A stretch of DNA of 64,000 bases from Verrucomicrobiia bacterium (GCA_035577545.1 DATLVI010000013.1:67778-131777), one strand, 5' to 3'. Positions 44,422-58,671 are shown, numbered from the stretch's first letter. Made by a program: numbers and translations. Notes: generated by a model not told the origin, from the letters alone.

Positions 44422-44627
44422 AGCCTGGCTGCTTTGCGCGCTTTCGGGAAACAGCCGGATCCCTGAATTGGTACGCCAAGGGTGAGAACGTTAGAACTTT
44501 GGACGCAATAATTGACTGGCTCCGGGAACTCTGGAACCTGCGTGAAGTGCTCGCAGCAGACCCAGCCACGGCGGGACTGTTGACAGCATAACCCCACCAT
44601 GGCCAAGCAAGGTTGGAGCTATCCAGC

Positions 44628-45287
44628 TTATCCTTCAGCCACCCAGTACACGACGTAATCCTTGGATTTTTTCCTCCGGTACCAGGCCTTCATCGTTCGG
44701 CTGTGGATGTAGGTAGATTTCTTCCTAGGCATCAACCGATGCTCCCTTATTTTCTGGCAGGTGGCGCACAACCCATGGGCCTTCCGCTTCCTGGTCCTCC
44801 CACAGCCATTGCAGCAAATCAGGTGCTTTTCCCTGTCCACCCAGTGAATGGGATACCTCTTGAAGATCTCGTGCTTCTCGTACTTCTGGCGCTGGTAATT
44901 TCGCCAACAACGGAGGCGACAGAACTTCCGACGAGCCTTGGGAAAGACATAAAAAGGGGAATTGCAGTTCGGACAGATTTTGCTGTGCCCCTTGTGCTTA
45001 CCCCAGGGCCGGCCCCGCCGATAGCTTGCGAAGCATTTTACCGTGCAAAAGCGGGGTGGGGGATCCTTGGGACGGAGGTACCGGTAGAAAAGTCTTTGGC
45101 ATTGTTTGCATGTCCACGGATGTGGATTCGGACGTGATGTTATCCTAAGAACCCCCACGTTCGGTACGGTTCCGGCATCATCAGGGGGACGCGAGACGTT
45201 GTTGTTTATGATTACGCCACCTTCCTCTTTCTGGGCTTTCTCTCTCGCATGAATAAAATGGGGGAAGTCATAGAAGGGCCAAGCCAC
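44628..45287 (-). CDS. Highly basic protein with three tandem CxxC..CxxxC zinc-ribbon repeats, in a lower-GC patch
   Basis: 219 aa. Repeats CKQC-x15-CTVKC, CPNC-x13-CRLRC and CNGC-x10-CATC, each with FY..PK..RKFC-like spacing. Lys/Arg-rich. The overlapping + ORF 44613..45137 is Pro-rich junk. Confidence 0.4.
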   Translation of the reverse strand: MAWPFYDFPHFIHAREKAQKEEGGVIINNNVSRPPDDAGTVPNVGVLRITSRPNPHPWTCKQCQRLFYRYLRPKDPPPRFCTVKCFASYRRGRPWGKHKGHSKICPNCNSPFYVFPKARRKFCRLRCWRNYQRQKYEKHEIFKRYPIHWVDREKHLICCNGCGRTRKRKAHGLCATCQKIREHRLMPRKKSTYIHSRTMKAWYRRKKSKDYVVYWVAEG

Positions 45288-45412
45288 TAGTCCTTGGAAC
45301 TGTGGCGCATCCAGATGATGGGATGTCCGAGTTGGCCGCGAAGTGGCTGCCTATTCCGAATTAACCGTGACACCTACGAGCCTGAAAAGATGCAAAAATT
45401 CGATAGGTACAT

Positions 45413-45443
45413 GCATGACCGGTGGGCATTACACAAATAGGAG
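45413..45443. repeat. 31-nt element CATGACCGGTGGGCATTACACAAATAGGAGC; second copy (28/31 identical) at 63620..63650
   Basis: Direct comparison of the two intergenic sequences. Copy A abuts a tRNA-Cys-like 3-prime half. Confidence 0.45.
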
Positions 45444-45487
45444 CCTGCAAACCTCCTATCGTGAGTTCGATTCTCACACCTGCCTCC
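45439..45487 (+). other. tRNA-Cys(GCA)-like 3-prime half (anticodon arm through CCA) lacking a canonical 5-prime half; pseudo-tRNA or att-site remnant
   Basis: Anticodon stem-loop GGAGC-CTGCAAA-CCTCC, T arm GTGAG-TTCGATT-CTCAC, acceptor 3-prime strand ACCTGCC, then T-CCA. No complementary GGCAGGT acceptor 5-prime strand or D arm upstream. The region 45420..45487 is only 68 nt. Confidence 0.35.
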
Positions 45488-45763
45488 AATTCTAATCCCT
45501 GCAAATATAGGGATCTGTGGGGGGGGTTCCTTCTTGGTGCTAATTGCGTAAGCAGGCACTGGGTACCATACGTGGGCACCATCGGTGCTGGAACGCCAAT
45601 GCAGAAGTGTTGATTGACCGCGATTTCGAGGCCAAAGACCCTGCGTAATCAGTCGATAGACACCAGAACGACTACCAATTGAGTCGGACTTACGGCTTGT
45701 GTATTATTGAACTACTTGACCGACGAGGTTCTAATCGGGGCTCACAATTATCCAATCTTTGTT

Positions 45764-46678
45764 TCATCCCCCCGGAGATTTATCGGCCAAATGATCAATG
45801 CGATCCAGATTACGATCGACAGCCTCAAGATAAAGATTGCGTCCATTGCCGAAGTGGTGCGGTAAAACCTGGTGAACCTGCCCCCATTGTTTCTCGAGCA
45901 ACTGCCCTACACGACCTTCATAGAATGCCCGGGTCTGGCGCATCAGGTCTGTGGCGCCGCTGTAAGTCGTGATGCCGGCTTCCGCGAACTCGCGGTACAA
46001 CGCGGGCAACCGTTCGGGGTAATCATCAGCAGCCATTTGACCAAGCATGTCGCCGGCGCCGAGTGCGCTCCCGAGGAACCGTTCACGCTGGTCCCGAAAC
46101 TCAAGCTTTGAAGTGTCAACTTCGATGCCAGTGCAGTTAATGGCCAACTGCACGACGCGCACTTCGTCAGCGGTGACCCCCAGTGGCGGCAGAAACGTGG
46201 CGGCAAACTCGGCGCTGCGCTTCACATGAATCAGTGTGTACTTGGCCCCAGTGCCTTTGACATCACCAATCTGCTTAATGTAGCCCGTGTCATGCAATAA
46301 GATGGCGGCAACAGCGAGTTCAAAATCCCGGGCGCTGACCGTCGGCAATTGACCGCTTTTGATTTGTCCATCCAGGATTCGCAGCGTCGTAACGGTCGCC
46401 TGGCAAGTGTGTGCCAGGTCGTGGAATTTCGTGTCACAAGCCTGATATCCCGGAAAGCGACCGGCGAAAAGCTCGCCTACTTTGTTGAACACCGCGACCA
46501 GGAACTCCGTGCTGCGACCAGGGAAATCCTCGCTGAAAAGACTGCAGACGAATTGCAACGTCTCCGGTGCGCCTCGAAAATCAAGCAAATGGCCAATCGG
46601 CTTTTGGTCGGACATGAGTATCACAGGCTCGCCAATCCAGTGTTCCGATGCAACTCTAAAATCTCCCGCAATCGTCAC
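45764..46678 (-). CDS. HD-domain metal-dependent phosphohydrolase
   Basis: 304 aa. HD motif context ..FHDLAH.. and ILLHDTGY. Confidence 0.55.
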   Translation of the reverse strand: MTIAGDFRVASEHWIGEPVILMSDQKPIGHLLDFRGAPETLQFVCSLFSEDFPGRSTEFLVAVFNKVGELFAGRFPGYQACDTKFHDLAHTCQATVTTLRILDGQIKSGQLPTVSARDFELAVAAILLHDTGYIKQIGDVKGTGAKYTLIHVKRSAEFAATFLPPLGVTADEVRVVQLAINCTGIEVDTSKLEFRDQRERFLGSALGAGDMLGQMAADDYPERLPALYREFAEAGITTYSGATDLMRQTRAFYEGRVGQLLEKQWGQVHQVLPHHFGNGRNLYLEAVDRNLDRIDHLADKSPGG

Positions 46679-48180
46679 AGGCGAAAGAGCGCCTGGAGTT
46701 GGTTGCGGAAACCAGCCGTATATTGCCGTTGCTCCTCGATGGCAAGCGGCGTGGTCCCCCGGGCTGCCAGCTTCCCCTCAGTTTCCAATTTGCGTTTTGC
46801 CAGCAACTCGCTGATTTCCTGCAACACCCGGGGTTGTTGCCGGAAGACCTCCGCCAGCATTGCGCGATCGAGTTCCGCGACTTCGCAATCGGCGGTGGCC
46901 GTAACGGTGGCCGACCGTTTCTCGCCGGTAAGCAATGACATCTCGCCAAAACAGGCGCCGGAATGGAGCGCGGCCAGGTGCGTGCGGGCGCCGTTGTTTG
47001 TGACCGACACATCCGCCGTGCCAGTCATCAACACAAACATCGAGTCTCCGTTCGCATCTTGTTGGAGCATTTTTTCACCACGTCCAAATCGGTGAATCCG
47101 CACGCCAGCCAGTAGCGTCTGCAGTTGCGGATCTTCCACGGAGCGGAACAGCGAATGTTGTCGGAGCGCGGTGCGCACCGCTTCGAGGTGCGGCTCGGTC
47201 GTTAGAGCGGGAGGCGCTTGCATGTAGATCGTGCGCGTGGGATACGGGATCTTGATGTGGTGGCGCTGCAACTCATACCAGATGTTGGTGCGCACGGCAT
47301 CTTCCACCTCGTTGTACACGGTGTGATCGTCCATCCAGTACCGGAGTTCATACACGTTGGCAAAATCTCCAAAGTTTTTGAGGTAGACCTGCGGAGGAGG
47401 ATTCGCGAGCACATGCTCGACGGTAGCGGCTGCATGCGCCAGAACGTCCTTTACGCGGTTGGGAGGCTCTGCCTGGTCAATTCCCAACTCCAACCGCATG
47501 GCGTGCTTGCGAACCGGGTAATAGAGATTGGCAATGGTCTGACGGGCAATCTGGCTGTTGGGCACGTCCAGCCACAAGTCGTCGTTCGTCCGCACGCGGG
47601 TGGATCGCCAGCTCATCTCCATGACTTCGACGTGCCGATGCTCAAAGAGCAGCCAATCCCCGACCTTGAATGGCTTCTCGAAATGGAGCACACAGCCCGC
47701 AATCACATTGGCCAGGAGATCCTGGGCCGCCAAACCAACCGCCAGCGCAAGAATGCCGGAGCCCGCGAGCAGGCCGGGGATTTGGATGTGAAAACCAACG
47801 CTGAGGATCAACAGAACGGCTGTGCTCAGAATCGCCAGTGCGACCACGTCGCGCACCACGCGAGGAACTACAATCTTGCGTTTCTGCTCGAAGTAGAGTT
47901 CCCACACCATCCGCCGGGTCAACGAAACCGCCAGCAGGGCAGACAGCAAAACCGTGGCGGCTCCGAGGGCGTCCCGCCACCACATGGTGGGCGCGGTGAG
48001 GCTCGTTGCGATATAGAGGGCCAACGCGCCACTGAACATTTCATAGAGCACACCCCAACGCATCCCCACACGCTGCTTCAACCACCGTCCCCCGGCCAGG
48101 AGCACAAGGTACGCCACCAGCGCGGTCACCGGCAGCAACACGCCTACTTCGCCAGCCGTTCTCCAATTCAAGACAGCCAT
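46675..48180 (-). CDS. Mechanosensitive channel (MscS family) fused to a C-terminal cyclic-nucleotide-binding domain (bCNG-type)
   Basis: Start at the internal Met MAVLNWRTAGE (~48180; the ORF upstream is Arg/Ser-rich junk). TM helices, then an MscS core (GDWLLFEHRHVEVMEMSWRSTRVRTNDDLWLDVPNS). C-terminal CNB domain (FGRGEKMLQQDANGDSMFVLMTG..FGEMSLLTGEKRSATVTA). Confidence 0.7.
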   Translation of the reverse strand: MAVLNWRTAGEVGVLLPVTALVAYLVLLAGGRWLKQRVGMRWGVLYEMFSGALALYIATSLTAPTMWWRDALGAATVLLSALLAVSLTRRMVWELYFEQKRKIVVPRVVRDVVALAILSTAVLLILSVGFHIQIPGLLAGSGILALAVGLAAQDLLANVIAGCVLHFEKPFKVGDWLLFEHRHVEVMEMSWRSTRVRTNDDLWLDVPNSQIARQTIANLYYPVRKHAMRLELGIDQAEPPNRVKDVLAHAAATVEHVLANPPPQVYLKNFGDFANVYELRYWMDDHTVYNEVEDAVRTNIWYELQRHHIKIPYPTRTIYMQAPPALTTEPHLEAVRTALRQHSLFRSVEDPQLQTLLAGVRIHRFGRGEKMLQQDANGDSMFVLMTGTADVSVTNNGARTHLAALHSGACFGEMSLLTGEKRSATVTATADCEVAELDRAMLAEVFRQQPRVLQEISELLAKRKLETEGKLAARGTTPLAIEEQRQYTAGFRNQLQALFRL

Positions 48181-48253: not shown

Positions 48254-50458
48254 ATGCGCGAGCGGGGGCTCGTGATGACAAAGTGCATTGGTGACGGACG
48301 ATGTCGATTATTAATCCGGTTGGTTGCCTTGCTTTGGCTGGGCACCGCATCGTTATTTGCGGATCCCGCGACCGCTGGCAACACCAATGGCCAGATTGCG
48401 GCCTTGATCAAGTTGTCCGCAGCCTGCCAATCGTCCGGACAGCATCCGCGCGCGGAACAGCTTCTCCAGGAAGCGGTCGATCTCGCCAAATCATCAGGCG
48501 ATCGCAATGCGTTGATTTTGGCGATGAGTAAACTGGGCGCCGCTTGCACGATGACGCGGCAGTTGAACCGCGCAGAGACATTGTTGCGCGAGAGCCTGGA
48601 GATGGCGCGTGCCGATGGAAACCTGCAAATGACAGGCGCCATCCTGAACGATCTCGGCAATGTGTTGGGATTGCGCCAGAAGTATGCGGAGGCACTCGAT
48701 GTATTTCAGCAAAGCGTTGCCGAGGCTCGCAAAGGCGGCAATAAACTGCTCATCGCCCAGGCCCTGTGCAACGCAGCCTCAACAGCCGCGCGGGCTGGCA
48801 TGATACAGCAAGTCGACACATTGAACGCAGAGGCGCTCGATCAGATCGCGCAACTCGACGCATCGCACGAGAAAGCATACTTATTCATCACCGCCGGTGA
48901 GACTGATGCTGCCCAACAGCATTCGCAGCGCGCGCAACAATCTTATCAACATGCGCTGGACGTTGCCGAAGCGATTGGCGACCACGGCGCTGCCAGTTAC
49001 GCTCTCGGGTATTCCGGCGAACTTTACGAGCGCGACAAGCAGCTTGATCAAGCATCGTCCTTTACCCGCCGGGCGATTTTTGAGGCGCAACAAGCCCGGA
49101 TGCCGGAAGCATTGTACCGCTGGGAATGGCAATCCGGCCGGCTCCTGAAAAGGCAAGGTGAGACGGAGCAAGCAATGGCAGCATACCGGCGTGCGATCCA
49201 AACCCTGCAACCGATTCGGCACGACATTTCTCTCGGCAATGGCAACGCGACGACCCACGTTTCGTTTCGCGAGGCGGAAGGACCATTGTACTTCGAAATG
49301 GCTGACCTGCTACTCCAACAAGCCGGTCATTCGAAAGATCCACAGCCGCTGCTGCTGGAAGCGCGTGATACGGTGGAGCAACTTAAGGCGGTTGAGCTGG
49401 AGGATTATTTTCAGGATGAGTGTGTCAATGTTGCGCGCGCACGGACCAGGTCACTCGAGGCCGTGGACGGCCACACGGCAATCGTGTACCTGATCCCGCT
49501 TGGCACGCGCACGGAAGTGTTGGTGGGCCTGGCATCCGGCCTGCACGACTTCACGGTGGACGTTGGAGTGGACACGCTGGCGGCGGAAGTCCGGGAGTTT
49601 CGGCGCAACCTGGAAACACGCACGTCATATGGCTACCTCGCTGAAGCGCGACAGCTTTACGACTGGATCATCCGCCCGATACACGGCCTATTGATTGAGA
49701 ACCGCATCGACACGCTGGTGTTCGTGCCGGACGGCGCGCTACGCACAATCCCATTCGCCACCTTGCATGATGGAAAGAAGTTTTTGATCGAAGAATACGC
49801 AGTAGCGGTGGCACCGGGTCTTTCGCTGATTGAACCGCGCCCGATCCAACGGGCGAACGCGCGTCTGCTATTGGGCGGATTATCGGCATCCGTGCAGGGG
49901 TATCCGTCCTTGAATTTTGTGCCTGCTGAACTGCATGATATCGAACCGATGTATCCCAGTGAGACGTTGTTGAACAAAGACTTCGTGTTGCCGTCGATCA
50001 CCGGGAAACTTACCAAGGAACAATACAGCATCGTCCACATTGCCTCGCATGGTCAGTTCAATAGCGATGCGCACAAAACGTTTGTACTGACCTACGATGG
50101 GAAATTGACATTGGATGATCTGGAAGCGTTGATTCGTCCCAGCCAGTATCGCGGCAAACCGGTGGAACTCCTGGTGTTGAGCGCGTGCCAGACCGCGTCC
50201 GGCGACGATCGCGCCGCGCTGGGGTTGGCCGGCGTGGCGATCAAGGCCGGCGCGCGCAGTGCGCTGGCCTCGCTGTGGTTCGTGAACGACCAATCTACCT
50301 CTGCATTGATTTCCGAATTCTATCACCAGTTGCGCGAATCGCCATCCGTCTCAAAAGCCCGGGCGTTGCAAGCGGCCCAAATCAAGATGCTGAACGACCC
50401 ACGCTACCGGCATCCGTGCTATTGGGCACCGTACTTGATCATCGGGAATTGGCTGTGA
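48254..50458 (+). CDS. TPR-repeat + CHAT-domain (caspase-like protease) protein, secreted or periplasmic
   Basis: 734 aa. N-terminal hydrophobic signal. TPR-like repeats (ALILAMSKLGAACTM.., ALDVFQQSVAEARK..). C-terminal CHAT domain with His/Cys dyad context IVHIASHGQF and LLVLSACQTASGDD. Confidence 0.7.
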   Translation: MRERGLVMTKCIGDGRCRLLIRLVALLWLGTASLFADPATAGNTNGQIAALIKLSAACQSSGQHPRAEQLLQEAVDLAKSSGDRNALILAMSKLGAACTMTRQLNRAETLLRESLEMARADGNLQMTGAILNDLGNVLGLRQKYAEALDVFQQSVAEARKGGNKLLIAQALCNAASTAARAGMIQQVDTLNAEALDQIAQLDASHEKAYLFITAGETDAAQQHSQRAQQSYQHALDVAEAIGDHGAASYALGYSGELYERDKQLDQASSFTRRAIFEAQQARMPEALYRWEWQSGRLLKRQGETEQAMAAYRRAIQTLQPIRHDISLGNGNATTHVSFREAEGPLYFEMADLLLQQAGHSKDPQPLLLEARDTVEQLKAVELEDYFQDECVNVARARTRSLEAVDGHTAIVYLIPLGTRTEVLVGLASGLHDFTVDVGVDTLAAEVREFRRNLETRTSYGYLAEARQLYDWIIRPIHGLLIENRIDTLVFVPDGALRTIPFATLHDGKKFLIEEYAVAVAPGLSLIEPRPIQRANARLLLGGLSASVQGYPSLNFVPAELHDIEPMYPSETLLNKDFVLPSITGKLTKEQYSIVHIASHGQFNSDAHKTFVLTYDGKLTLDDLEALIRPSQYRGKPVELLVLSACQTASGDDRAALGLAGVAIKAGARSALASLWFVNDQSTSALISEFYHQLRESPSVSKARALQAAQIKMLNDPRYRHPCYWAPYLIIGNWL

Positions 50459-52377
50459 AGTTGTCTCCGCGGTTGGTGGGTTTGTTGATCGTCCTCGCGG
50501 TGTTCTTCTCCGCACTTTTGGTCCGACGGCTGGGGTGGTTACAATTCCTCGAGTTTCGCGCCTACGATTTCTTCATCCAACAGCAACCGAAGGCCGTAAC
50601 AAGTGACCCGATCGTGTTGGTGGAGATGACCGAGAAGGACATTCAAAGCCCGACGCTGGATTATCCGATTACCGACGATAAGCTGGCGGAATTGCTGAGC
50701 ATTTTGGAGGCGCAACAACCCGCAGTGATCGGACTGGACATCTGGCGCGACATCCCGGTGCCGAAAAACGGCGTGCACTTTCGCCAGCTCAACGAGACGT
50801 TGCTCGCGCACACCAATATCGTTGCCATTTTCACCCTGGGAGGGATCGGGCCGCCGCAGGCGCTGGCAGCGAATCCCGAACGACTGGGGTTCAATGACAA
50901 TCTGCCCGTCGACGACCGGGTGGATAAAACGACACCGAAAGTCCGGCGCGGCCTGCTGATTGGCGATTCGAAATCCGGGCAGAGCTTCGATTCGATCGCG
51001 TTTCGTGTGGCAGAAGTCTATTTGGAGCGGCAGGGCATTGTGCCACGATTCGATCCTGCCGATCCTGACTCGTTTCAACTGGGCAAGACGCGACTGCGGG
51101 CATTCGAGGCAAACGACGGCGCGTACGTGGGCGCCGACGCTCGCGGCTGGCAAATACTGCTCGACTTCAAGTGTCCGGACGAGTTCGCCCGACATTCGGT
51201 CGGCGAGGCGCTCGCTGGCGGAATCCCACCTGGCAGCCTGCGCGGCAAAATTGTGTTGGTGGGGATGAATGCGCCAAGCGTCTCTGACGAGCGCGTCACG
51301 CCGATTCGTTCCAATCATCATGGTATCGAGGTGCAGGCGCAGATTATTCATCAATTGTTGCGCGCGGCACTCAACGGCGAGAGACCGCTCCGGTTCTGGA
51401 AGGACTGGGAAGAGGATGCCTGGATGTTGTTGTGGTGCCTGGTCGGCGGGGCGATCGGTTACTGGATCCGGTCTCCGTGGCGGTTCCTTGCGGCCATTGG
51501 GCTGGTACTGCTCGCGCTGGGCTGGATCGCGTGGCGATCATTTCTCGCGGGTTGGTGGATTCCGTTGATGGCCCCGGTGGCAGCCTGCCTGCCGGCAGCG
51601 GCATTGATGACGTCATACATTTCCTTTGAAGAACGAAAACAGCGCGGCCAACTCATGCAGTTGTTTTCCAATCAGGTGTCACCCGACATCGCGCAGGCGC
51701 TTTGGGAACAGCGGCATGAGTTCCTGGCCGGCAATCGCCCGCGTTCACAAAAGCTAATCGCTACCGTTCTCTTCACCGATCTCAAAGGCTTTTCGGGCAC
51801 CTCGGAAGGACTGGAGCCTGCGCAGTTAATGGACTGGCTTAATGAATACATGGAAGCGATGGCCAACGCCGTGATGGCTGAACAAGGCGTGGTCGAGAAA
51901 TACATCGGCGACTCGATCATGGCCGTTTTTGGCGTCCCGATCGCGCGCGTGTCGCAGGAGCAGATTACGCAGGACGCCCGCAACGCCATTTGCTGCGCCC
52001 TGGCCATGCGCAAAGAAATGGAGCGGCTCAATGCGGAGTGGAAACAGCGAAATATGCCGGTCTGTAGTATGCGCATCGGCATTCACACCGGGCCGCTGGT
52101 GGCCGGTAGCCTCGGCAGCGTCGAGCGACAGGAGTACACGGTCATCGGCGATGCGGTGAACACGGCATCACGGTTGGAAAGCTTCGATAAGGACACCGGC
52201 TCCAATGACAGCGTCTGCCGCATCCTCATCAGTGAAGCAACGAAACTGTTATTAGGTGAAGAGTTTGAGCTGAGCCCATTGGGTACAATGAGCTTGAAAA
52301 ACAAGAGTGAGAAAGTCATCATCCATCGCGTGGTTGGGCGAGCCAGCCGCGAACCCGGAGGTCAGCGTGAGAATTAA
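50455..52377 (+). CDS. CHASE2 extracytoplasmic sensor domain fused to a class III adenylate/guanylate cyclase
   Basis: GTG start overlaps the CHAT gene stop (GTGA). N-terminal TM + CHASE2 region, 3 TM helices, then a cyclase domain (ATVLFTDLKGFSGTSE, IGDSIMAVFG, IGIHTGPLVAGSLGS..YTVIGDAVNTASRLES). Confidence 0.7.
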   Translation: MKLSPRLVGLLIVLAVFFSALLVRRLGWLQFLEFRAYDFFIQQQPKAVTSDPIVLVEMTEKDIQSPTLDYPITDDKLAELLSILEAQQPAVIGLDIWRDIPVPKNGVHFRQLNETLLAHTNIVAIFTLGGIGPPQALAANPERLGFNDNLPVDDRVDKTTPKVRRGLLIGDSKSGQSFDSIAFRVAEVYLERQGIVPRFDPADPDSFQLGKTRLRAFEANDGAYVGADARGWQILLDFKCPDEFARHSVGEALAGGIPPGSLRGKIVLVGMNAPSVSDERVTPIRSNHHGIEVQAQIIHQLLRAALNGERPLRFWKDWEEDAWMLLWCLVGGAIGYWIRSPWRFLAAIGLVLLALGWIAWRSFLAGWWIPLMAPVAACLPAAALMTSYISFEERKQRGQLMQLFSNQVSPDIAQALWEQRHEFLAGNRPRSQKLIATVLFTDLKGFSGTSEGLEPAQLMDWLNEYMEAMANAVMAEQGVVEKYIGDSIMAVFGVPIARVSQEQITQDARNAICCALAMRKEMERLNAEWKQRNMPVCSMRIGIHTGPLVAGSLGSVERQEYTVIGDAVNTASRLESFDKDTGSNDSVCRILISEATKLLLGEEFELSPLGTMSLKNKSEKVIIHRVVGRASREPGGQREN

Positions 52378-53095
52378 TTTGTGGCGTTGTGGCGCGTTGC
52401 TTGTCGGTCTGTGCGTGATGCTACCGGTCGCGGCCCGGTCGGAGGACAAGCCGTCTCCGCCGGCCGGGGAAACTGTCCCACCGGTGAAGTTTCGACCGCC
52501 CTCGCGCGGCGCACCGGCCACGCGCCTGACCGGCGGATCGCGCGGCAGTGGGGACGCGACAATCACTTTGGACGTACTGGCTCCCGACGAGACCGGCTTG
52601 ACAACTCAGGAACAACCCTCGCTGTTCTGGTATCAATCCAAACCCGCCGCGGCAAAGTTCGAGTTGACGCTGTTGGAAGAGAACAAGCTCAAGCCCTTAC
52701 TCCAGGTCAAATTCGAGCGTTCCAGCAAGGCCGGCATTCAACGAATCAAACTCTCCGAGCACGGCGTGAAGCTTGCGCCCAATGTTGAATACCAGTGGGT
52801 CGTCGCGCTGGTCACCGATCCTGACAACCGTTCGAGCGACTTGGTGGCCAGTGGAGCGATCAAACGCATCGAGCCGTCCGCCGAGTTGCGAGCCAGGATT
52901 GCCGGGGCTGGCCCGGCGGCCCTGCCCGGTATCTACGCCGAGGCCGGTATCTGGCATGACGCGCTGGAAACTCTTTCGGATATGGTCGATGCCCGGCCCA
53001 ACGACAAAGCATTGCGCCAGGCGCGCGCCGATTTATTGACCCAAGTGGGCCTGAAGGCCGCCGCAAGTTCCGAAGGCGCGCTCGCCAGGAAATAA
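52367..53095 (+). CDS. Secreted DUF928-like protein
   Basis: Probable GTG start overlapping the cyclase stop. Signal peptide LVGLCVMLPVAARS. The DUF928 assignment rests on my recollection of the family (PSLFWY.. region) and its known co-occurrence with CHAT/CHASE2/TPS genes in cyanobacteria; it needs an HMM check. Confidence 0.4.
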   Translation: MRINLWRCGALLVGLCVMLPVAARSEDKPSPPAGETVPPVKFRPPSRGAPATRLTGGSRGSGDATITLDVLAPDETGLTTQEQPSLFWYQSKPAAAKFELTLLEENKLKPLLQVKFERSSKAGIQRIKLSEHGVKLAPNVEYQWVVALVTDPDNRSSDLVASGAIKRIEPSAELRARIAGAGPAALPGIYAEAGIWHDALETLSDMVDARPNDKALRQARADLLTQVGLKAAASSEGALARK

Positions 53096-54700
53096 TCAGA
53101 ACGCCACGAGGTTCGCCTGAAAATGCAGCCCGAGGTCCTGGGCGTTGTCATTCGGGATGGAGATGCGGTTCAGCCGGTAGCCCCAGTAAAGCTGGGCGTT
53201 GAAGCGCTTGTTGGGAGTAATCAACACTCCCAAGCCGACACTGTAGATCGTGCTTGGACTTTGTGAATCATTGACGTTCCACGCACCGCCGTAATCAAAG
53301 AAGGGCGCCAACTGGACGATCCCGTTGCCAGCTTTGTCGAAAAGCACCGGCACCCGAAACTCCGCCGACGACACCAGGCCGCGGTCGCGCACCAGTTGAT
53401 TTTCCACATAGCCCCGCACGGTGTCCGCCCCACCAACGCTGATTTGTTCGAGCGCCAGCAATTTGTCGTCGGTCCATTGCCCGGCGACGCGCAAGATAAG
53501 TTGGTTCGGCGTGTTGAAGAGGCGTTGGATGTACTGCGCCTGACCCAGCCAGGCAAAAAACTTCCCGTTCGGATCGCCAGCCACCCTGTCGTCCGTTGCG
53601 CCAAGCACATCCAAACCAACATTGAAGGTGGATCGCAACGCGAGCACATGATTCTGGCCGCGGTCGATGAACTCTTGCGACAATCCCAAAACCGCTGCTG
53701 TCATCTGGCCGTTCGTAGCTCCCGGCGAGATATCGAACGGCTGGCCGAAGAGCGTGGAATTGTTCTGACGCCGGTCGAATGCGACCGATAGCGCCACTTC
53801 ACGATTCGCCGTCTGATACACCGGTTGGCGCAACGTGACGCCCAAGTCAACGGTTTCGCTACTGATGTTCAGTGTAGTGAACGGATTTTCGACGATGCTG
53901 GTGTCCTGCCGGCTGGCGCGGACGCCGAGAGTGGTGTTGTAACGGTTCAGTGGCAACGCATAGTTGCCGCCGATATTGTGCCACCCGGAAAGTCCCCAGC
54001 CATCATTCTCGCCGGCATTCGCGATTCCATACGTCACATCCAGCGGGTCGCTGTGTCCGGTCAGATTCAGATCTGCCGCCAGTAGAGAGATCTCTTCCGC
54101 GCCGACGCTGGGCGGCCGGTGATTGTCGATCTGGAGGCCGACCCGAAACGGTTGCTGATCCACAACGCGTAAATCCAGAATACTCTGGCCGGGAGCGGTG
54201 CCCGGCTCCAATTCGGCGTTGATCTGTTTGATATTTGGATTCTGCCGGAGAACTTGCAAACCCTCTTTCAGCTTGTTCATGTCGAGCGGCGGGCCGCTCC
54301 GAAGCTGTAATCGGCTGGTGATGTAGTCGTCGCGCAACCATTTATTTCCGTGCAACTCAATCCTGGATAAAATGCCCTCGACGATGCGAATCGTAATGAC
54401 ACCGTTTTCGGGGGTTTGATCCGGGATGAGGGCACCGGAGTTGAGATACCCGTGGTTGATGTAGTAGACAGTGACGGCACGACGCGCGTCTTCCAGTTCT
54501 TCGGTGGTGATCTCACGGTTCGCATAGGGCGCGGTGATTTTCGCCAGGACTTCCGACGAAAAGGCGGTATTACCCTCAAATCGAAATCCATGGACGAACA
54601 GCCGCGCGCTAGTGGACAGCCTCTGCGCACCGGCGGTTTGCGCAAGTAATACCAGTCCAAATAACGCCAGGACGTGGCGGACTCTCCTACTCGCCATCAT
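53096..54700 (-). CDS. TpsB (ShlB/FhaC/HecB family) two-partner-secretion outer-membrane transporter
   Basis: Start at MMASRRVRHVLALFGLVLLAQTAGA (signal). POTRA-like N-terminal region (FRFEGNTAFSSEVL), then a beta-barrel ending in aromatic-rich ..FQANLVAF. Confidence 0.75.
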   Translation of the reverse strand: MMASRRVRHVLALFGLVLLAQTAGAQRLSTSARLFVHGFRFEGNTAFSSEVLAKITAPYANREITTEELEDARRAVTVYYINHGYLNSGALIPDQTPENGVITIRIVEGILSRIELHGNKWLRDDYITSRLQLRSGPPLDMNKLKEGLQVLRQNPNIKQINAELEPGTAPGQSILDLRVVDQQPFRVGLQIDNHRPPSVGAEEISLLAADLNLTGHSDPLDVTYGIANAGENDGWGLSGWHNIGGNYALPLNRYNTTLGVRASRQDTSIVENPFTTLNISSETVDLGVTLRQPVYQTANREVALSVAFDRRQNNSTLFGQPFDISPGATNGQMTAAVLGLSQEFIDRGQNHVLALRSTFNVGLDVLGATDDRVAGDPNGKFFAWLGQAQYIQRLFNTPNQLILRVAGQWTDDKLLALEQISVGGADTVRGYVENQLVRDRGLVSSAEFRVPVLFDKAGNGIVQLAPFFDYGGAWNVNDSQSPSTIYSVGLGVLITPNKRFNAQLYWGYRLNRISIPNDNAQDLGLHFQANLVAF

Positions 54701-57131
54701 CCGCACCCATCGGCACTGAACTTGGCACGAACCCGCCTGGCTCGATGGGCAATCCTCCGGGCCCAAGCACGATGAAACTGCTGACATTACCGGCCAATCG
54801 CACTCCGCAATCGGGACGCAACAAGGATTCCGCGTCCAGAAGATCCGCCGGCAAGGCCACGAGGCTTCCGCTTAGATCCACATTCGGGGCGGTAACGACC
54901 ACAGTGCCGGGAATCCCGGACGGCGTCGATACGTCAAACGGACTTTCGGAGGCGAAGAAGAAGTCAGAGTTGACCGTGACCTTGCCCCCATTGCCCTGGA
55001 CATCCACCTTGGCGGTAATTGGGCTCTCATTCAATATTACGAAGGTCGGATCGAACGTGATATTCCCACCATTACCCTGATGCGCGTTGGCGCTGAGGGG
55101 ACTGTGTAACAAATAGATGCGGCGTCCAGCCGTCAATTCGATGTTGCCGCCATTCAGCGCGGCTTCGGCAGTGATCTGGCTGTGCTTGAGTTGAATGTCC
55201 CTGCCGGCCATCACGGAGATATCGCCGCCGTCGTTGTTCGCCGCCGAAACCTGCAGCGCACTGTGATCGGTCATTGTCAACGAGCCGTCCACCTGCAATG
55301 AGACTCCACCGGCCGCTCCGTCTGCCTCGCCGGCCGCTTTTATTGTGGAACTGCCCGCCAGCGTCACGTTCCCGGCTTGAATCTCGACGTTGCCGCTCGG
55401 ACCGGCGCCGGAGCTGTCGGTAAAAATCGAGCTCATGTTCCGCAGTTCGAGCATGCCGGCGGAGATGTGAATGTCACCGCCGGGCGCTGGCGCGTCGGAG
55501 CTGGTGGTGACTGCCTGGATGAACGATGAGTCGAGTAGAATGGAGTTGGCCGTGATTTCGACACTGCCACCCTTCCCAGAACCAAAAGTGGCCGCCGCTA
55601 CAGTCCCAAAAGCGGACATGTTGACAGACTTGGCGGTGATGCCGATGAAACCCGCATCCCCAGAGCCAAACGTGGCCGCGAGGAGCGTGGCACCGTTAAG
55701 TATTTCGAGAGAATCCGTCTGGATAATTATATCGCCGGCGTTACCGCCGCCATTGATCTGCTGACTGTTCGCAGTGATCTGCGTGGGCGTGGTGAGCATC
55801 GCGTCAAGTCGCACGGACGAAGCCGTGATGTCGATGCGCCCGGCATTTCCGGCGCCGAAGGTAGCGGAAGAGATTTGGGCACTGTTTACCAATTCGAGGC
55901 TGCCGGCTTGAATCGTGATGTCGCCGCCCTTGCCAGCACCACCGCCAAGAAGTGGATCCCCGGTTGCGGCGGAGATTTGCGTCGTCGGGTTAAAATTATT
56001 GTCCGTCAAGCCGCCGCCATCCAACCGGATCGAGCCGGCCGTGATGCTGATATTTCCGCCCGCGCCAAGGCCCATGGTCGACAGGCTGTCGATTTGGCCA
56101 CCATTGACGAGATTCAAATCGTTGACAACGGAGATGTCGATTCCCTGACCGTCGCCCGCGCCGGTGGTATTGGCCTGGATAAAGGAACCGTCCACCATCA
56201 GGCCACCGCCGCGGATGACAATCCGGCCGCCACCGTCACCATTCGCGTCGAGTTGCGCACCGTTTAGCAAACTGATCTGGCCTTGTTGCGGAAACGCCGC
56301 GTTGAATGCCGCGACGCTCAGTGTCGTCGGATCCACAGGCACTTCCCCGGCGGATTGGACGCTGACCATGTTGATTTGCCCGGCAGGCGCCTGCACCAAA
56401 CCGCCATCGACGGAAATGTCACCGCCGACGAGCGAGATTGATTTGCCGGCTGGCACAGCAAGGACACCCTGCTGCACCGCAATACTGCCGGGACTTCCTC
56501 CGAGAAATCCAAAAGCGCTAACCGGAGCCGAACTCAAAAGGGAATCGTCCGCACCCACCGCGGCCACGAATCGCGCACCATCGGCTAATTTCAGATAATC
56601 GGCGGTGCTGGCGGCGAAGGAACCGCTGACGTCGATCCTGGCGTTGGGACCGAAGATGATGCCCTTGGGATTGATAAAGAAAACGTTGGCTCCTGAGATC
56701 GTGGAGCGGATTAGTCCATCAATCGAAGAGGGACTGCCACCGGTGACTCGGGATAAAATGTTCTGGATCGTGTTCGGGCCAGAAAAGGTCGCGATGTCCC
56801 CGCTGGACAAGTCAAACTGTGAGAAGCTGAAGAAAAGATTGTGCCCGACTGTTTTGCCGTCGCCGGAGGTGATGTTGAAAGCCGGCCCGGAGAGCGATTG
56901 GCCGGTTTGACCCAACGAGTGATCGAATGTGACCTGGCCGGCCTCAGACGAAAGTCCCCCCGAGCCTGCCATTAGACAGGCTATCGCAAAAGCGCGAATG
57001 GTCTTTGCCAATTCCAAGTCGCTATCGGACTTTTTCTCACACCCGGCAGTTCGGTCAGGGTTTGAGATCGATGTAAACGTAGTGCTGGCTGCCGTCAGAC
57101 AAAGTGGCAATGATCTTCCAAGTGCCCGCAC
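54687..57131 (-). CDS. TpsA exoprotein with N-terminal hemagglutination-activity (TPS) domain and beta-helix repeats
   Basis: 814 aa. TPS domain motifs NITSGDGKTVGHNLFFSFSQFDLSSGDIATFSGP and NILSRVTGGSPSSIDG, then G/N/T-rich beta-helical repeats. Lies immediately upstream of tpsB on the same strand, overlapping it by ~14 nt. Confidence 0.7.
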   Translation of the reverse strand: MRALGRSLPLCLTAASTTFTSISNPDRTAGCEKKSDSDLELAKTIRAFAIACLMAGSGGLSSEAGQVTFDHSLGQTGQSLSGPAFNITSGDGKTVGHNLFFSFSQFDLSSGDIATFSGPNTIQNILSRVTGGSPSSIDGLIRSTISGANVFFINPKGIIFGPNARIDVSGSFAASTADYLKLADGARFVAAVGADDSLLSSAPVSAFGFLGGSPGSIAVQQGVLAVPAGKSISLVGGDISVDGGLVQAPAGQINMVSVQSAGEVPVDPTTLSVAAFNAAFPQQGQISLLNGAQLDANGDGGGRIVIRGGGLMVDGSFIQANTTGAGDGQGIDISVVNDLNLVNGGQIDSLSTMGLGAGGNISITAGSIRLDGGGLTDNNFNPTTQISAATGDPLLGGGAGKGGDITIQAGSLELVNSAQISSATFGAGNAGRIDITASSVRLDAMLTTPTQITANSQQINGGGNAGDIIIQTDSLEILNGATLLAATFGSGDAGFIGITAKSVNMSAFGTVAAATFGSGKGGSVEITANSILLDSSFIQAVTTSSDAPAPGGDIHISAGMLELRNMSSIFTDSSGAGPSGNVEIQAGNVTLAGSSTIKAAGEADGAAGGVSLQVDGSLTMTDHSALQVSAANNDGGDISVMAGRDIQLKHSQITAEAALNGGNIELTAGRRIYLLHSPLSANAHQGNGGNITFDPTFVILNESPITAKVDVQGNGGKVTVNSDFFFASESPFDVSTPSGIPGTVVVTAPNVDLSGSLVALPADLLDAESLLRPDCGVRLAGNVSSFIVLGPGGLPIEPGGFVPSSVPMGADDGE

Positions 57132-58203
57132 TCAAACCTTTCGTGGCAAGGTTGAAATGCCACGTACCAGAACCATCCGGTTGGAACAGATTGCCAGTGG
57201 TGGCACCACCCGTAGGCGACGCGTCGACGGCTGATTCCCCGCCTACCGTGCCATCACACTTGGACAACTGAATCGTGTGACTGCCAGTCAGGACAGGCGA
57301 CCCATCGCAGTTCAGAAGAGTCATCTTAATCGGGATGGTACTGCCCAGCTTGAACCCTCGTACGGCCGAAGCGCAGGTGCCGCCAGTGACATCCCCGCCG
57401 CCGATGGGAGGCAGGAAACCAGTGAATGACAGCGGACACGGAAGCGAGACGGCAATTCCGTCCGTGACCATATAAACCAAATTGGGGTCATTGGTTGCGC
57501 AGAAACTGTAATTGATCACTTCATCAAAGTTCGTTGGGCATGGCCCCTCGCAGCATGTAGGGCATTCGGGGATGAAAACGTAGGCACGGACCGGGAAAGG
57601 AAAGTCTGTCGGCAATTGCACGGCACCGGGCAGGGAACCTACGTCTCCGGTGAAGTTCGTAGGAAGCGCAGCATCGAACTCATAGAATTTGATCTGTTGT
57701 GCCGCTCCGGCGTCGGATCCCGACCAGTGCCAGGAGAATGAATATAGGGCTTGGCCGTCGGAGCACCCATTGGTCTCGATGGTAGACGAAAGGACTTCCA
57801 GAGTCGTGGATGACACCCGCGACGTCGCGGTCACGTAACCTGTCAATTCGCTGTTATCGGTCTTGTCACCATTGCTTGCCGTGGTGGTGGACTTCCAAAC
57901 GTAGCCCGGTTGCCCCAGGATGCGGGCCAGTGTTTTAGTGGACGCCCCGCTGGGAAGGGGGCCGCCAGCGACAAAACCCGGGGTGTTAGTCATGGCCGCA
58001 CTCGGGCTGGTCATGAGGGCTGTGGCTACCGTGTTAGATTTGAGCGTTGATGAGGTGACATTGACGGAAGCCTTTCCAAAGCCCGAGCCGTTCATCGAAC
58101 CCGTCCAGCCCGCCAGCGCCGATGGCCCATGGCCAATGACTACTCCAAGTGCTACCGCGCATCCGAACCGCATATAATGACCAATGCCCTGCTTCATATT
58201 CAT
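57055..58203 (-). CDS. Secreted Cys-rich hypothetical protein upstream of tpsA
   Basis: Start at MNMKQGIGHYMRFGCAVALGVVIGHGPSALA. Ser/Thr-rich N-terminal half. C-terminal half has CPTCCEGPCP and 10+ Cys. Confidence 0.4.
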   Translation of the reverse strand: MNMKQGIGHYMRFGCAVALGVVIGHGPSALAGWTGSMNGSGFGKASVNVTSSTLKSNTVATALMTSPSAAMTNTPGFVAGGPLPSGASTKTLARILGQPGYVWKSTTTASNGDKTDNSELTGYVTATSRVSSTTLEVLSSTIETNGCSDGQALYSFSWHWSGSDAGAAQQIKFYEFDAALPTNFTGDVGSLPGAVQLPTDFPFPVRAYVFIPECPTCCEGPCPTNFDEVINYSFCATNDPNLVYMVTDGIAVSLPCPLSFTGFLPPIGGGDVTGGTCASAVRGFKLGSTIPIKMTLLNCDGSPVLTGSHTIQLSKCDGTVGGESAVDASPTGGATTGNLFQPDGSGTWHFNLATKGLSAGTWKIIATLSDGSQHYVYIDLKP

Positions 58204-58671
58204 CGTTCTCCCTTTGCTACTCCCAAGGTAACCGGAACACACGTCCTACCGAATTCGTCACTCTGAGTTATACAACCCGCGACCCTTTTCTCACTTGGGT
58301 TTGGTGGATTTGGCGGCCCATCGCAGGTATACAGAAAACCAACCACCCTGTCAAGCTTGCAGGATAAGCCCTCCAGCAACAAGTGAAGTTTGACAGAGCT
58401 TCCTTCGTGTCCCGTTCTGCAGCGTAGCAGTAAGCTTACAGGCGTCTGCGGTCAGACCGGTGTGATTGGGTTGTTCTGCTGTTACATGAGCAGGATGTCC
58501 AAAACACGAGAGATCATGCCGGCTGTGTAGTGATCGGGTTGGTTTAGCTGAGCAGGCTTCTGCATAACTGCTTTCAGAGGCGCGAAGGTGGACGATGGTC
58601 CGCGATTACGGCACGCTTGGCAGGTGTGCCACGGCGTGGTAGAAGTTCAGCTTCAATCGCCGTCGCCCGGT

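Follow-up and report, generated by a model that had tools for sequence, protein, structure and literature searches.

Three genes follow one another without a gap on the plus strand of the window (the whole 64-kb stretch of DNA that was analyzed), and the question that the locus raises is whether genes so tightly packed form a functional unit and, if so, of what kind. They encode a TPR-CHAT protease of 734 aa (48254-50458), a CHASE2-class III cyclase of 640 aa (50455-52377), and a DUF928 protein of 242 aa (52367-53095), and all three domain assignments, made in the original prediction, were borne out by Pfam.

Gene junctions and the extent of the cluster

At the CHAT/cyclase junction (...ctGTGAag), the TGA stop codon (50456-50458) overlaps an in-frame GTG codon (50455-50457), giving the 4-nt GTGA overlap (50455-50458, plus strand) that had been predicted; TTG codons at 50449 and 50461 are alternative starts. 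The first Met of the cyclase is residue 58, which lies past the first transmembrane segment (TM1) and an invariant GWLQFLEF motif and falls within the CHASE2 match, and a downstream Met start is therefore excluded. At the cyclase/DUF928 junction (52357-52377, plus strand), the GTG at 52367 begins 11 nt before the end of the cyclase TAA stop codon (52375-52377) and has a GGAGG Shine-Dalgarno sequence 5' of it (52357-52361), and DUF928 homologs begin M-[KR]-[TI]-N at the equivalent position, so that this predicted overlap stands as well. A second, separate gene caller made the identical three calls (on two identical metagenome contigs). Stop and start codons that overlap or lie a few nucleotides apart on one strand are the arrangement expected of translational coupling, and the two junctions, with overlaps of 4 nt and 11 nt, have it.

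Short gene overlaps are ordinary in bacterial operons, and what exceeds chance here is the conservation of the junctions, not the overlaps themselves. The literal GTGA overlap is confined to the lineage of the window; related loci mostly (16 of 19) have the cyclase ATG 1 to 7 nt past the CHAT stop codon. The second junction is looser: the cyclase and DUF928 genes overlap or are separated by ≤17 nt in 13 loci, are 67 to 250 nt apart in 7, and lie on opposite strands in 4. Calling the three genes a fixed-stoichiometry module was thus an over-reading, since 11 of 24 relatives have the cyclase and DUF928 genes uncoupled.

The three packed genes are real, but to describe them as a triad is too narrow, because they form the core of a larger cluster of seven to eight genes in which a TpsA/TpsB pair, a secreted 395-aa protein, and a divergent cNMP-binding effector co-occur with them. 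Convergent with the DUF928 gene, with a 0-nt gap, is the minus-strand gene (53096-54697) for TpsB, a 533-aa outer membrane transporter with POTRA and ShlB/FhaC barrel domains that is present in 21 related loci. The start of tpsB is overlapped by 11 nt by the stop of tpsA (54687-57131, minus strand), which encodes an exoprotein of at most 814 aa (its true start is uncertain) with a TPS domain and beta-helix repeats. The matches of the pair (PF05860, 4e-42; PF08479, 2e-20; PF03865, 5e-33; and, for TpsA, NCBIfam TIGR01901, 8e-22) show an N-terminal TPS domain in one protein adjoining POTRA and ShlB/FhaC barrel domains in the other, which is the type Vb arrangement, and from this family membership TpsA is predicted to be secreted through TpsB. 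Near its C terminus, TpsA carries the motif C775...SF-x-V-L-G-P-G-G-L-P (789-795) followed by an acidic tail, and the motif is conserved as C...S-F-x-V-x-G-R-G-G-L-P across Verrucomicrobiota and cyanobacteria. Directly upstream of tpsA is the gene (57055-58242, minus strand) for the secreted, Cys-rich 395-aa protein, which belongs to no known family; homologs occupy the equivalent position in at least 11 related loci, and a Pfam search with two of these equivalents (L043 and L044) gave no match.

On the other side of the triad, a 73-bp spacer separates the CHAT gene from a divergent minus-strand gene (46675-48180), which encodes a 501-aa MscS-type channel with a C-terminal cNMP-binding domain. 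The second gene caller called this gene and tpsB as well. The phosphate-binding cassette of this protein is FGEMSLLTGEKRSA, ending in RSA like that of CRP. Next to it is a gene (45764-46678, minus strand) for an HD-domain protein of the Npun_R2479 family (NF045583, 9e-14, below the cutoff; PF28239, a weak match). This gene recurs in three related loci (L003, L013, and L021) and lies inside the cluster in L043, and its product is possibly a cluster member and a candidate phosphodiesterase.

Of 25 informative Verrucomicrobiota loci, 24 have the CHASE2-cyclase gene next to the DUF928 gene. All five genes of the set are found in 13 loci, and the cluster is single-copy and 60 to 80% identical across many Verrucomicrobiota genomes, where it sits in a housekeeping neighborhood. 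A Pseudanabaena plasmid carries the same five parts in a different order. Among 12 annotated cyanobacterial plasmid loci, CHASE2 adjoins DUF928 in 11 and a CHAT gene lies within 10 kb in 9, which confirms the earlier suggestion that CHAT, CHASE2, and DUF928 genes form a recurrent cyanobacterial cassette; the output of the CHASE2 protein on these plasmids is a histidine kinase, an N-terminal CHAT domain, or nothing. Two bacterial phyla at least have thus conserved the cluster, which had not been characterized before. The gene structures, domains, catalytic residues, and conserved synteny were shown here; we infer the localization of the proteins, their partnerships, and the product of the cyclase.

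Domains and predicted locations of the three proteins

The CHAT domain (PF12770, E = 9.7e-59, profile positions 3 to 289 of 289) occupies residues 464 to 732 of the protease, behind a TPR array (~44-400). His599 (in HIASHG) and Cys645 (in LSACQTA) are the predicted catalytic dyad, and both, together with His595, are invariant in 27 homologs. An AF2 model was confident for the TPR part (pLDDT, >90), but the catalytic core (524-678) had a pLDDT of <50, at which the geometry of the dyad is unreliable. The only hydrophobic segment of the protein is N-terminal and has the appearance of a signal peptide (~1-36, ending between LFA and DP). Since signal-peptide-like N termini with AxA-type sites are kept in ~18 homologs, as judged by eye and by hydropathy, the protease is predicted to be exported to the periplasm by a cleavable signal peptide; 5 of 7 cyanobacterial CHAT neighbors likewise have N-terminal hydrophobic leaders. 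Two considerations count against a periplasmic protease, namely that a catalytic cysteine is unusual in the oxidizing periplasm and that in Nostoc CHAT is also found fused to CHASE2 on the cytoplasmic side.

The cyclase has the layout of a CHASE2 receptor, in which TM1 (5-23) is followed by a periplasmic CHASE2 domain (~24-312; PF05226, 3.9e-50, match over residues 17 to 332), three further transmembrane segments (~313-387, placed by hydropathy at ~313-332, 344-362, and 369-387), and a cytoplasmic cyclase domain (436-619; PF00211, 7e-26). Its closest solved relatives are CyaB (3r5g), CyaC (1wc0), and Cya2 (2w01), with E values from 5e-28 to 5e-25. The metal-binding Asp residues D442 and D486 align to those in CyaC and CyaB, the substrate-specifying residues K482 and T562 have in the alignment, as their CyaC counterparts, a Lys and a Thr whose roles are established, and the transition-state residues N569 and R573 are present in VNTASR. 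A substrate-specifying Thr marks subclass IIIb and an Asp subclass IIIa. The protein is accordingly classed, by its sequence, as a probable IIIb adenylate cyclase, with cAMP the predicted product because of the Lys482/Thr562 pair. The proposal that an extracytoplasmic cue is linked here to second-messenger synthesis holds as an interpretation.

The DUF928 assignment was supported by a PF06051 match (E = 3.8e-41, profile positions 3 to 181 of 184) to a family with 5,737 representatives at E ≤ 1e-3. A downstream Met start, the lack of a CHAT dyad, and the lack of HMM support for DUF928 had been named beforehand as findings that would contradict the original prediction, and the opposite was found in each case. 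With a single N-terminal hydrophobic segment, a signal peptide by its appearance, the DUF928 protein is predicted to be exported to the periplasm. The signal peptide is followed by a flexible tail with the motif P-x-x-R-x-x-G-G-S-R-G (50-60), an Ig-like beta-sandwich (66-167), and a TPR-like helical region (172-241). The tail is near universal among DUF928 homologs as Y-K-P-P-x-x-G-x-P-x-x-R-x-x-G-G-[ST]-R-G. That the motif is also kept in Nostoc, at a locus lacking any CHAT gene within 10 kb, speaks against a protease site as the main role of the tail. In the predicted model, the Ig-like sandwich packs on a short TPR domain, a two-domain fold of the type seen in MtxA, the best match to the model in the PDB; a DUF928 profile searched against PDB sequences did not retrieve MtxA (4z29) at E ≤ 10.

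A proposed envelope-to-cAMP module and its alternatives

The cluster most likely relays a cell surface event to the cell interior, and the reading toward which we lean, with somewhat more confidence than doubt, is that the triad and its neighbors are the core of a conserved envelope-to-cAMP signaling module in which DUF928 is the periplasmic partner of CHASE2. TpsB in the outer membrane would export the beta-helical TpsA, while the Sec pathway would deliver TPR-CHAT and DUF928 to the periplasm; given that the signal peptides of both proteins are conserved, both would there encounter the CHASE2 domain of the receptor cyclase. DUF928, with its MtxA-type Ig-like and TPR domains and its Gly/Arg-rich flexible tail, is proposed as a CHASE2 partner or co-sensor because it adjoins CHASE2 whatever the cytoplasmic output, and one protein, a singleton, fuses a CHASE2-cyclase, a hydrophobic segment, and DUF928 in a way that preserves the proposed topology. 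More speculatively, the exported cysteine protease might cleave a periplasmic component and so set or reset the signal, the DUF928 tail and the C-terminal end of TpsA being the best candidate targets. The signal would then cross the membrane and activate the dimeric class IIIb cyclase, and the resulting cAMP may act on the adjacent cNMP-binding effector. The MscS-cNMP protein is, from its co-localization, the probable receiver here. In 15 of 28 related loci, the cNMP-binding neighbors carry other effector domains, such that three kinds were found in all, the MscS channel here and a glutaminase or a Ser/Thr kinase in relatives. Against the envelope-to-cAMP reading, such a neighbor is absent from ~40% of the loci with enough flanking sequence.

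A bolder version, which we consider doubtful, holds that DUF928 and MtxA-type proteins are the long-missing periplasmic coreceptors of CHASE2 domains generally and that the caspase-like protease generates the signal here by cleaving, or competing for, two Gly-Arg-Gly peptides, one in the DUF928 tail and the other in the C-terminal motif of TpsA. If this were so, the secretion or surface state of TpsA would control periplasmic proteolysis and through it cAMP, which would gate a channel or switch a glutaminase or kinase.

The cluster might instead be centered on secretion, as a TPS system for an adhesin or toxin in which TPR-CHAT matures or releases TpsA, DUF928 is a periplasmic chaperone or adaptor, and the cyclase does no more than monitor the process or feed back on it. 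TpsA and TpsB accompany the triad in most loci, in cyanobacteria too, the strongly conserved Cys...GRGGLP motif and acidic tail of TpsA could bind the TPR domain, and the processing of the FhaB prodomain by periplasmic proteases is a precedent (PMC8263021). One related locus (L026) has a fusion of TpsA-like repeats with a CHAT domain, but that locus appears degraded, with a truncated cyclase. Several cyanobacterial CHASE2-DUF928 loci, with or without CHAT, have no TPS genes within 10 kb (in PLSDB gene tables that are incomplete), another locus (L012) has none in 8.6 kb downstream, and the tightest and most invariant linkage is that of CHAT to CHASE2, not to TpsA; we therefore judge this alternative unlikely. 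That the cluster serves conflict or defense, whether as a Pycsar-like cyclase with a cNMP effector or with the caspase-like CHAT as a death effector, of the sort known from other bacterial conflict systems, and CHASE2 sensing envelope attack, seems to us very unlikely. It is true that the cyclase matches PADLOC PycC models (PDLC00734, 3e-30), that the MscS protein and PycTIR models match over their cNMP portions, that many cyanobacterial copies are plasmid borne, and that caspase-CHASE2 fusions have been reported within predicted apoptosis/immunity systems (PMC8195603). The PycC match, however, is no better than the one to ordinary class III adenylate cyclases (102 bits for CyaB), the Lys/Thr pair is a purine (ATP) signature, the protease is predicted to be exported, and glutaminase and Ser/Thr kinase effectors are atypical of abortive infection; PADLOC gave no match for DUF928, TpsA, or TpsB, and the single-copy conservation described above also speaks against defense.

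Taken as a model, the original prediction would make TPR-CHAT a cytoplasmic, Csx29-like protease held in fixed stoichiometry with the cyclase, coupling proteolysis and cNMP synthesis inside the cell, and to this model we now give very little credence. The likeness lies in the architecture: in both proteins, TPR repeats at the N terminus precede a caspase-like CHAT domain that has a His/Cys dyad, and Foldseek returned no solved two-domain TPR-CHAT structure other than Csx29 (7y83_D, E = 6.7e-7). TPR plus CHAT is, however, a general architecture of the CHAT family and not peculiar to Csx29. In the Foldseek search with the TPR-CHAT model, Csx29 (E, ~1e-6; TM score, 0.35 to 0.42; 12% identity) ranked behind plain TPR proteins, with alignments of ~500 columns to 7y83_D and 7y84_C and with the catalytic core of the query model unreliable, and neither phmmer nor a 27-sequence hmmsearch profile retrieved it from PDB sequences, where only TPR proteins were found. 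Nor is the context that of Craspase: the neighbors are TPS, MscS, and HD genes and not Cas7-11/gRAMP, a CRISPR array, or Csx30/31, no tandem or CRISPR-like array was found within the 64-kb window, and none of the seven cluster proteins scanned against PADLOC matched a Cas protein. Csx29 is cytoplasmic, binds Cas7-11, and is activated by target RNA, whereas TPR-CHAT begins with what its sequence indicates is a conserved signal peptide of the AxA type. The tight spacing of the genes and the cytoplasmic CHAT-CHASE2 fusion of Nostoc would suit the cytoplasmic model, but many relatives have the DUF928 gene uncoupled, and we rejected a Craspase-like cytoplasmic arrangement, as the signal peptides would put TPR-CHAT and DUF928 in the periplasm together with the CHASE2 domain. 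Finally, that the genes are mere operon neighbors with no common function has, in our view, next to no chance of being right, however commonplace short overlaps may be, because two phyla retain the gene set although its order and strands have changed and because MtxA in Alphaproteobacteria shows a parallel arrangement (PMC4439547).

Comparison with known systems

Individual parts of the envelope-to-cAMP module that we favor have counterparts elsewhere. In domain order, the divergent neighbor matches the MscS plus cNMP-binding arrangement of bCNG channels, which are MscS homologs with the cNMP-binding domain at the C terminus. The locus resembles Pycsar in that a class III-type cyclase adjoins a protein uniting a cNMP-binding domain with a membrane or enzymatic effector. 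It departs from Pycsar in that its cyclase is a membrane receptor and has the purine-type Lys/Thr pair, its surroundings are chromosomal, conserved, and of a housekeeping kind, and a periplasmic apparatus is present in addition. The catalytic domains of CyaB from Pseudomonas aeruginosa, CyaC from Spirulina, and Cya2 from Synechocystis are homologous to that of the CHASE2 protein and share its key residues, whereas their sensor modules differ from it, with the exception of Cya2, in which CHASE2 has likewise been reported.

The TPS pair resembles Bordetella FhaB/FhaC, likewise a TPS-domain exoprotein with a POTRA/ShlB transporter, and in both systems a periplasmic protease would be available for a C-terminal part retained in the periplasm. 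The processing of the FhaB prodomain by DegP, CtpA, and SphB1 is an established precedent (PMC8263021). TpsA here is short (~800 aa), a clan CD cysteine protease stands in place of a serine protease, and the pair is wired to a cyclase.

The receptor architecture (a TM segment, periplasmic CHASE2, further TM segments, and a class III cyclase) is that of CyaD1, CyaD2, and CyaK of Sinorhizobium meliloti. Those cyclases respond to a protein signal relayed via NsrA, a beta-barrel protein in the outer membrane (PMC13001267), and their output is cAMP, read by the cNMP-binding protein Clr (PMC13001267; PMC5498481); neither a CHAT protease nor DUF928 nor a TPS pair has been reported for that system. 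Their reader is a CRP-type transcription factor, where the cluster here has a channel and its relatives a glutaminase or kinase. MtxA of Magnetospirillum gryphiswaldense (MGR_0208, PDB 4Z29) resembles DUF928 in structure and context and not in sequence. It is periplasmic, and mtxA is followed by a CHASE2-adenylate cyclase gene (PMC4439547), so that a signal peptide and a neighboring gene of that kind are common to both proteins, although MtxA has been described as confined to magnetotactic bacteria and deleting mtxA produced no phenotype.

Gene organization and coupling of the triad

An ORF scan of the window revealed three long ORFs on the + strand within 48254-53095. The first (48254-50458; 734 aa) encodes TPR repeats and a full-length CHAT domain (Pfam, E=1e-58), the second (50455-52377) encodes a CHASE2 domain (4e-50) and a class III cyclase domain (7e-26), and the third (52367-53095) matches DUF928 (4e-41), so that the originally proposed DUF928 homology is supported by an HMM. 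At the first junction, ctGTGAag, the CHAT gene ends in TGA (50456-58) and the cyclase has an in-frame GTG at 50455-57, giving an overlap of 4 nt, and the only alternative cyclase starts there are TTG codons at 50449 and 50461. The first Met codon of the cyclase is residue 58, which lies inside the CHASE2 match, past the first transmembrane segment (TM1) and the invariant GWLQFLEF motif; this excludes a start at a downstream Met that would leave a gap between the genes. At the second junction, the DUF928 GTG at 52367 is placed 5 nt after GGAGG and overlaps the cyclase gene, which ends in TAA (52375-77), by 11 nt; DUF928 homologues start at the same position with M-[KR]-[TI]-N. An independent gene caller made the identical three gene calls on two identical metagenome contigs, in agreement with the predicted overlapping starts, and the expected CHAT dyad is present as His599 and Cys645, both invariant in 27 homologues. 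The original prediction was thus confirmed as an observation, and its interpretation was supported in part.

Short gene overlaps are ordinary in operons and have little meaning alone. What stands out is conservation across loci, not the overlaps as such. The cyclase ATG lies 1-7 nt past the CHAT stop codon, typically as TAAnnnnATG, in 16 of the 19 related loci with both genes intact; in the lineage of the window, the MKW N-terminus of the cyclase has been lost and the overlapping GTG is used instead. The cyclase-DUF928 junction is looser: the two genes overlap or are separated by ≤17 nt in 13 loci, stand 67-250 nt apart in 7, and occupy opposite strands in 4. The fixed stoichiometry that had been proposed for all three proteins is therefore plausible for the protease and the cyclase but is not conserved for DUF928.

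Conservation of a larger cluster in Verrucomicrobiota and cyanobacteria

The gene that converges on DUF928, with 0 nt between them, encodes a two-partner secretion transporter, TpsB (POTRA and ShlB domains; 53096-54697, − strand), and upstream of it lies tpsA (TPS domain; 54687-57131, −), the stop codon of which overlaps the tpsB start. The gene directly upstream of tpsA (57055-58242, −) encodes a secreted Cys-rich protein of 395 aa without a Pfam family; because its homologues keep this position in at least 11 related loci, it is probably a further member of the cluster. Divergent from the CHAT gene, with 73 bp between them, is a gene for an MscS-type channel with a C-terminal cNMP-binding domain (46675-48180, −), the phosphate-binding cassette of which ends in RSA, like that of CRP. 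The true product of this gene is 501 aa long according to the gene caller, not 661 aa, and the short ORFs antisense to CHAT genes that phmmer reported as MscS relatives are an artefact: the query was the longest ORF, of 661 aa, which at its N-terminus runs antisense to the 5' end of the CHAT gene. The adjacent gene (45764-46678, −) encodes an HD-domain protein of the Npun_R2479 family that recurs in three related loci (L003, L013, and L021), lies within the cluster in a fourth (L043), and could be a candidate phosphodiesterase of the pathway. Beyond it is a 1.3-kb stretch of lower GC (0.54; 44422-45763) in which the gene caller placed no gene and Rfam had no match; a basic 219-aa ORF there (44628-45287, −) has several CxxC pairs, is zinc-ribbon-like, and has no NCBIfam match. 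A promoter/terminator scan of 45.5-58.5 kb gave sites no more numerous than in shuffled sequence, and an Rfam scan of 42-60 kb was without a match.

The DUF928 protein has hundreds of close relatives, one of them labelled Verrucomicrobiales. A DUF928-anchored scan of species genomes yielded 28 loci, almost all from Verrucomicrobiota, the ORFs of which were searched with the window proteins. The CHASE2-cyclase gene adjoins DUF928 in 24 of the 25 loci with enough sequence, TpsB is found in 21 related loci, and the full set of TPR-CHAT, CHASE2-cyclase, DUF928, TpsB, and TpsA is present in 13, most of the others being truncated where their contigs end. The order of the genes and the strands they occupy differ among loci: CHAT and cyclase are transcribed divergently from DUF928 in L010, L011, L017, and L018, and every cluster gene is co-directional in a Chthoniobacter locus. 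Among L003-L019, several loci with 66-81% identity to the window DUF928 sit in bins labelled Bifidobacteriaceae, Akkermansia muciniphila, Chloroflexia, and Limnocylindrales; because of their similarity to Verrucomicrobiota loci, these contigs are probably mis-binned or mislabelled.

A gene for a cNMP-binding protein lies close by in 15 loci, with an effector domain that differs among them: an MscS channel in the window and L043, a Ser/Thr kinase in L004, L005, and L007, and, beside the cluster in nine loci (L006, L008, L009, L012, L013, L017, L018, L019, and L023), a glutaminase in proteins of about 610-700 aa, most of which also carry a STAS domain. Several loci have small proteins with a cNMP-binding domain only. 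As far as we know, the glutaminase and cNMP-binding (plus STAS) architecture is uncharacterised. A variable effector joined to a constant nucleotide sensor is the pattern expected of a receiver of the cyclase product.

Two apparent fusions were set aside or discounted. The 1417-aa TPR-CHAT-CHASE2-cyclase ORF in L004 was rejected because its junction is a run of 200 N. In L026 (6275-8095, +), a TPR-shortened CHAT protein carries TpsA-like beta-helix repeats as an N-terminal fusion and is encoded beside a truncated cyclase gene; the locus may be decaying, or the TpsA-CHAT fusion may be genuine, and since the locus looks degraded, we kept the fusion only as weak evidence of the Rosetta stone kind.

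The original prediction described CHAT/CHASE2/DUF928 adjacency as recurrent in cyanobacteria, and this proved correct. DUF928 matched 19 cyanobacterial plasmid records (tblastn versus plasmids); of the 12 annotated plasmid loci that we inspected, 11 have CHASE2 adjoining DUF928, 9 include a CHAT gene at a distance of up to 10 kb, and 6 contain TPS-type genes. A Pseudanabaena plasmid carries the five parts found in the window in a different order (TpsB, CHASE2, TpsA, TPR-CHAT, DUF928). Some of the cyanobacterial CHASE2 proteins lack a cytoplasmic output, others have a histidine kinase, and others a cytoplasmic CHAT domain at the N-terminus; because this output varies while DUF928 and CHASE2 stay, these two form an invariant periplasmic core. 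The CHAT-CHASE2 proteins are encoded on Nostoc plasmids (L032, 7164-9737; L034, 7560-9905) in loci that also contain DUF928, the protease here being itself the receptor output; proteins of about 780 aa resembling them occur in L038, L039, L041, and L042. DUF1822 genes recur beside the CHASE2/DUF928 pair (L034, L039, L041, and L042), once with a sigma-70 gene alongside (L034), and a peptidase-domain ABC transporter paired with HlyD is found repeatedly (L034, L038, and L041). A WD40/CHASE2/DUF928 cluster in N. punctiforme is noted in the one paper of the searchable literature that mentions DUF928.

Topology, conserved motifs, and the DUF928 fold

Hydropathy analysis of the CHASE2-cyclase indicated TM1 (5-23), a periplasmic CHASE2 domain, three more TMs, and a cytoplasmic cyclase; TPR-CHAT and DUF928 are each hydrophobic in only one segment, at the N-terminus. 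In TPR-CHAT this segment is a classic signal peptide, including an AxA-type cleavage site, and is kept in about 18 homologues, and N-terminal hydrophobic leaders are present in five of seven cyanobacterial CHAT neighbours. These segments make the periplasm the most likely meeting place of the protease, DUF928, and the CHASE2 domain, which changes the logic of the model first proposed. To our knowledge, a caspase-like CHAT protease at work in the periplasm would be unusual. We also considered CHASE2 as an inactive CHAT/caspase-like domain pairing with the protease and rejected it (hhalign probability 0.1%; no detectable kinship to CHAT). The nearest relatives of the cyclase domain are the class IIIb adenylate cyclases CyaB (3r5g), CyaC (1wc0), and Cya2 (2w01), and the domain keeps the metal Asp residues D442 and D486, the substrate residues Lys482 and Thr562, and Asn569 and Arg573, from which cAMP is predicted as its product.

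In the AF2 model, DUF928 has a disordered tail at its N-terminus, followed by an Ig-like sandwich (66-167) and a short TPR-like domain (172-241). The best match of this model among solved structures is MtxA (PDB 4Z29), a periplasmic Magnetospirillum protein described with "no homology," the gene for which is followed by a CHASE2-adenylate cyclase gene and can be deleted without a phenotype (PMC4439547). A DUF928 profile did not reach MtxA among PDB sequences, so the link between the two is one of fold and gene context only. Within the DUF928 tail is the motif P-x-x-R-[VI]-x-G-G-[ST]-R-G, which in loose form occurs in 130 of 150 representatives of this family of 5737 representative clusters, the exceptions being mostly truncated fragments or variant spellings of the motif. 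Invariant residues include D95, D99, D148, R164, and R165 of CHASE2 and P50, R53, and R59 of DUF928. The TpsA C-terminal motif, C...S-F-x-V-x-G-R-G-G-L-P-x-x-P, is common to Verrucomicrobiota and cyanobacteria. A 932-aa metagenome protein (P0255) joins CHASE2, cyclase, a hydrophobic segment (the former signal peptide), and DUF928 in a single ORF. This fusion is a singleton (one sequence on one 137-kb contig); it is topologically sensible, in that DUF928 would remain periplasmic. Four representatives of 450-500 aa (P0243, P0244, P0249, and P0282) are tandemly duplicated DUF928 proteins.

A putative envelope-to-cAMP signalling module

The most likely mechanism behind the observed gene structure, domains, catalytic residues, and conserved synteny is an envelope-to-cAMP signalling module. 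TPR-CHAT and DUF928 would be exported by Sec, DUF928 would serve as the periplasmic partner of CHASE2, the receptor cyclase would make cAMP, and the neighbouring cNMP-binding protein would receive it. More speculatively, the CHAT protease might cut the DUF928 tail or the TpsA C-terminus and so create or end the signal. The DUF928 tail motif persists in a Nostoc locus that has CHASE2 and DUF928 and no CHAT gene within 10 kb, which makes it less likely that the tail is chiefly a protease site.

That the protease instead matures TpsA, with the cyclase merely monitoring secretion, we regard as possible but unlikely. A Pycsar-like or other conflict system, in which a cyclase acts with a cNMP-binding effector in defence, seems less probable again: the PADLOC PycC and PycTIR models do match, but the PycC match is no better than that to ordinary adenylate cyclases, the Lys/Thr pair is of the purine type, and the genomic context is conserved and housekeeping. 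The cytoplasmic Csx29-like protease of the original prediction we consider very improbable. Csx29 is a remote architectural match (E~1e-6, TM 0.35-0.42, 12% identity), and in the AF2 model of TPR-CHAT from which this comes, the catalytic core is unreliable (pLDDT below 50) and the fold search was dominated by TPR proteins. The signal peptide contradicts a cytoplasmic protease, phmmer and profile searches found no sequence similarity between CHAT and Csx29, PADLOC found no Cas match among the cluster proteins scanned, and the window contains no tandem or CRISPR-like array.

The CHASE2 domain was defined in 2003, and as far as we know, neither a direct ligand nor a mechanism of activation has been established for it. 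In the best-studied case, the CyaD1, CyaD2, and CyaK cyclases of S. meliloti, a protein signal relayed from the outer membrane is indicated (PMC13001267). Candidate partners of CHASE2 can be named from the cluster, namely, the MtxA-like DUF928 protein, the exported TPR-CHAT protease, and the TpsA/TpsB secretion pair; this set is kept across Verrucomicrobiota and Cyanobacteria, with MtxA as a structural and contextual parallel in Alphaproteobacteria. The changing outputs (cyclase, histidine kinase, and CHAT) mark the periplasmic part as the constant sensing unit, and the question of CHASE2 input becomes testable in tractable cyanobacteria with the same cassette, such as Nostoc sp. PCC 7120 (plasmid alpha), N. 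punctiforme (pNPUN01), and Pseudanabaena ABRG5-3. The orphan MtxA structure is at the same time tied to the large DUF928 family, which is without an assigned function. In the searchable literature, we found neither DUF928 together with CHAT nor "CHAT domain" combined with CHASE2, and nothing there describes the conserved association of an exported CHAT protease with an MtxA-like DUF928 protein, a two-partner secretion pair, and a cNMP-binding effector of variable type. All parts of this association belong to known families, and CHASE2 receptor cyclases are an already known kind of system.
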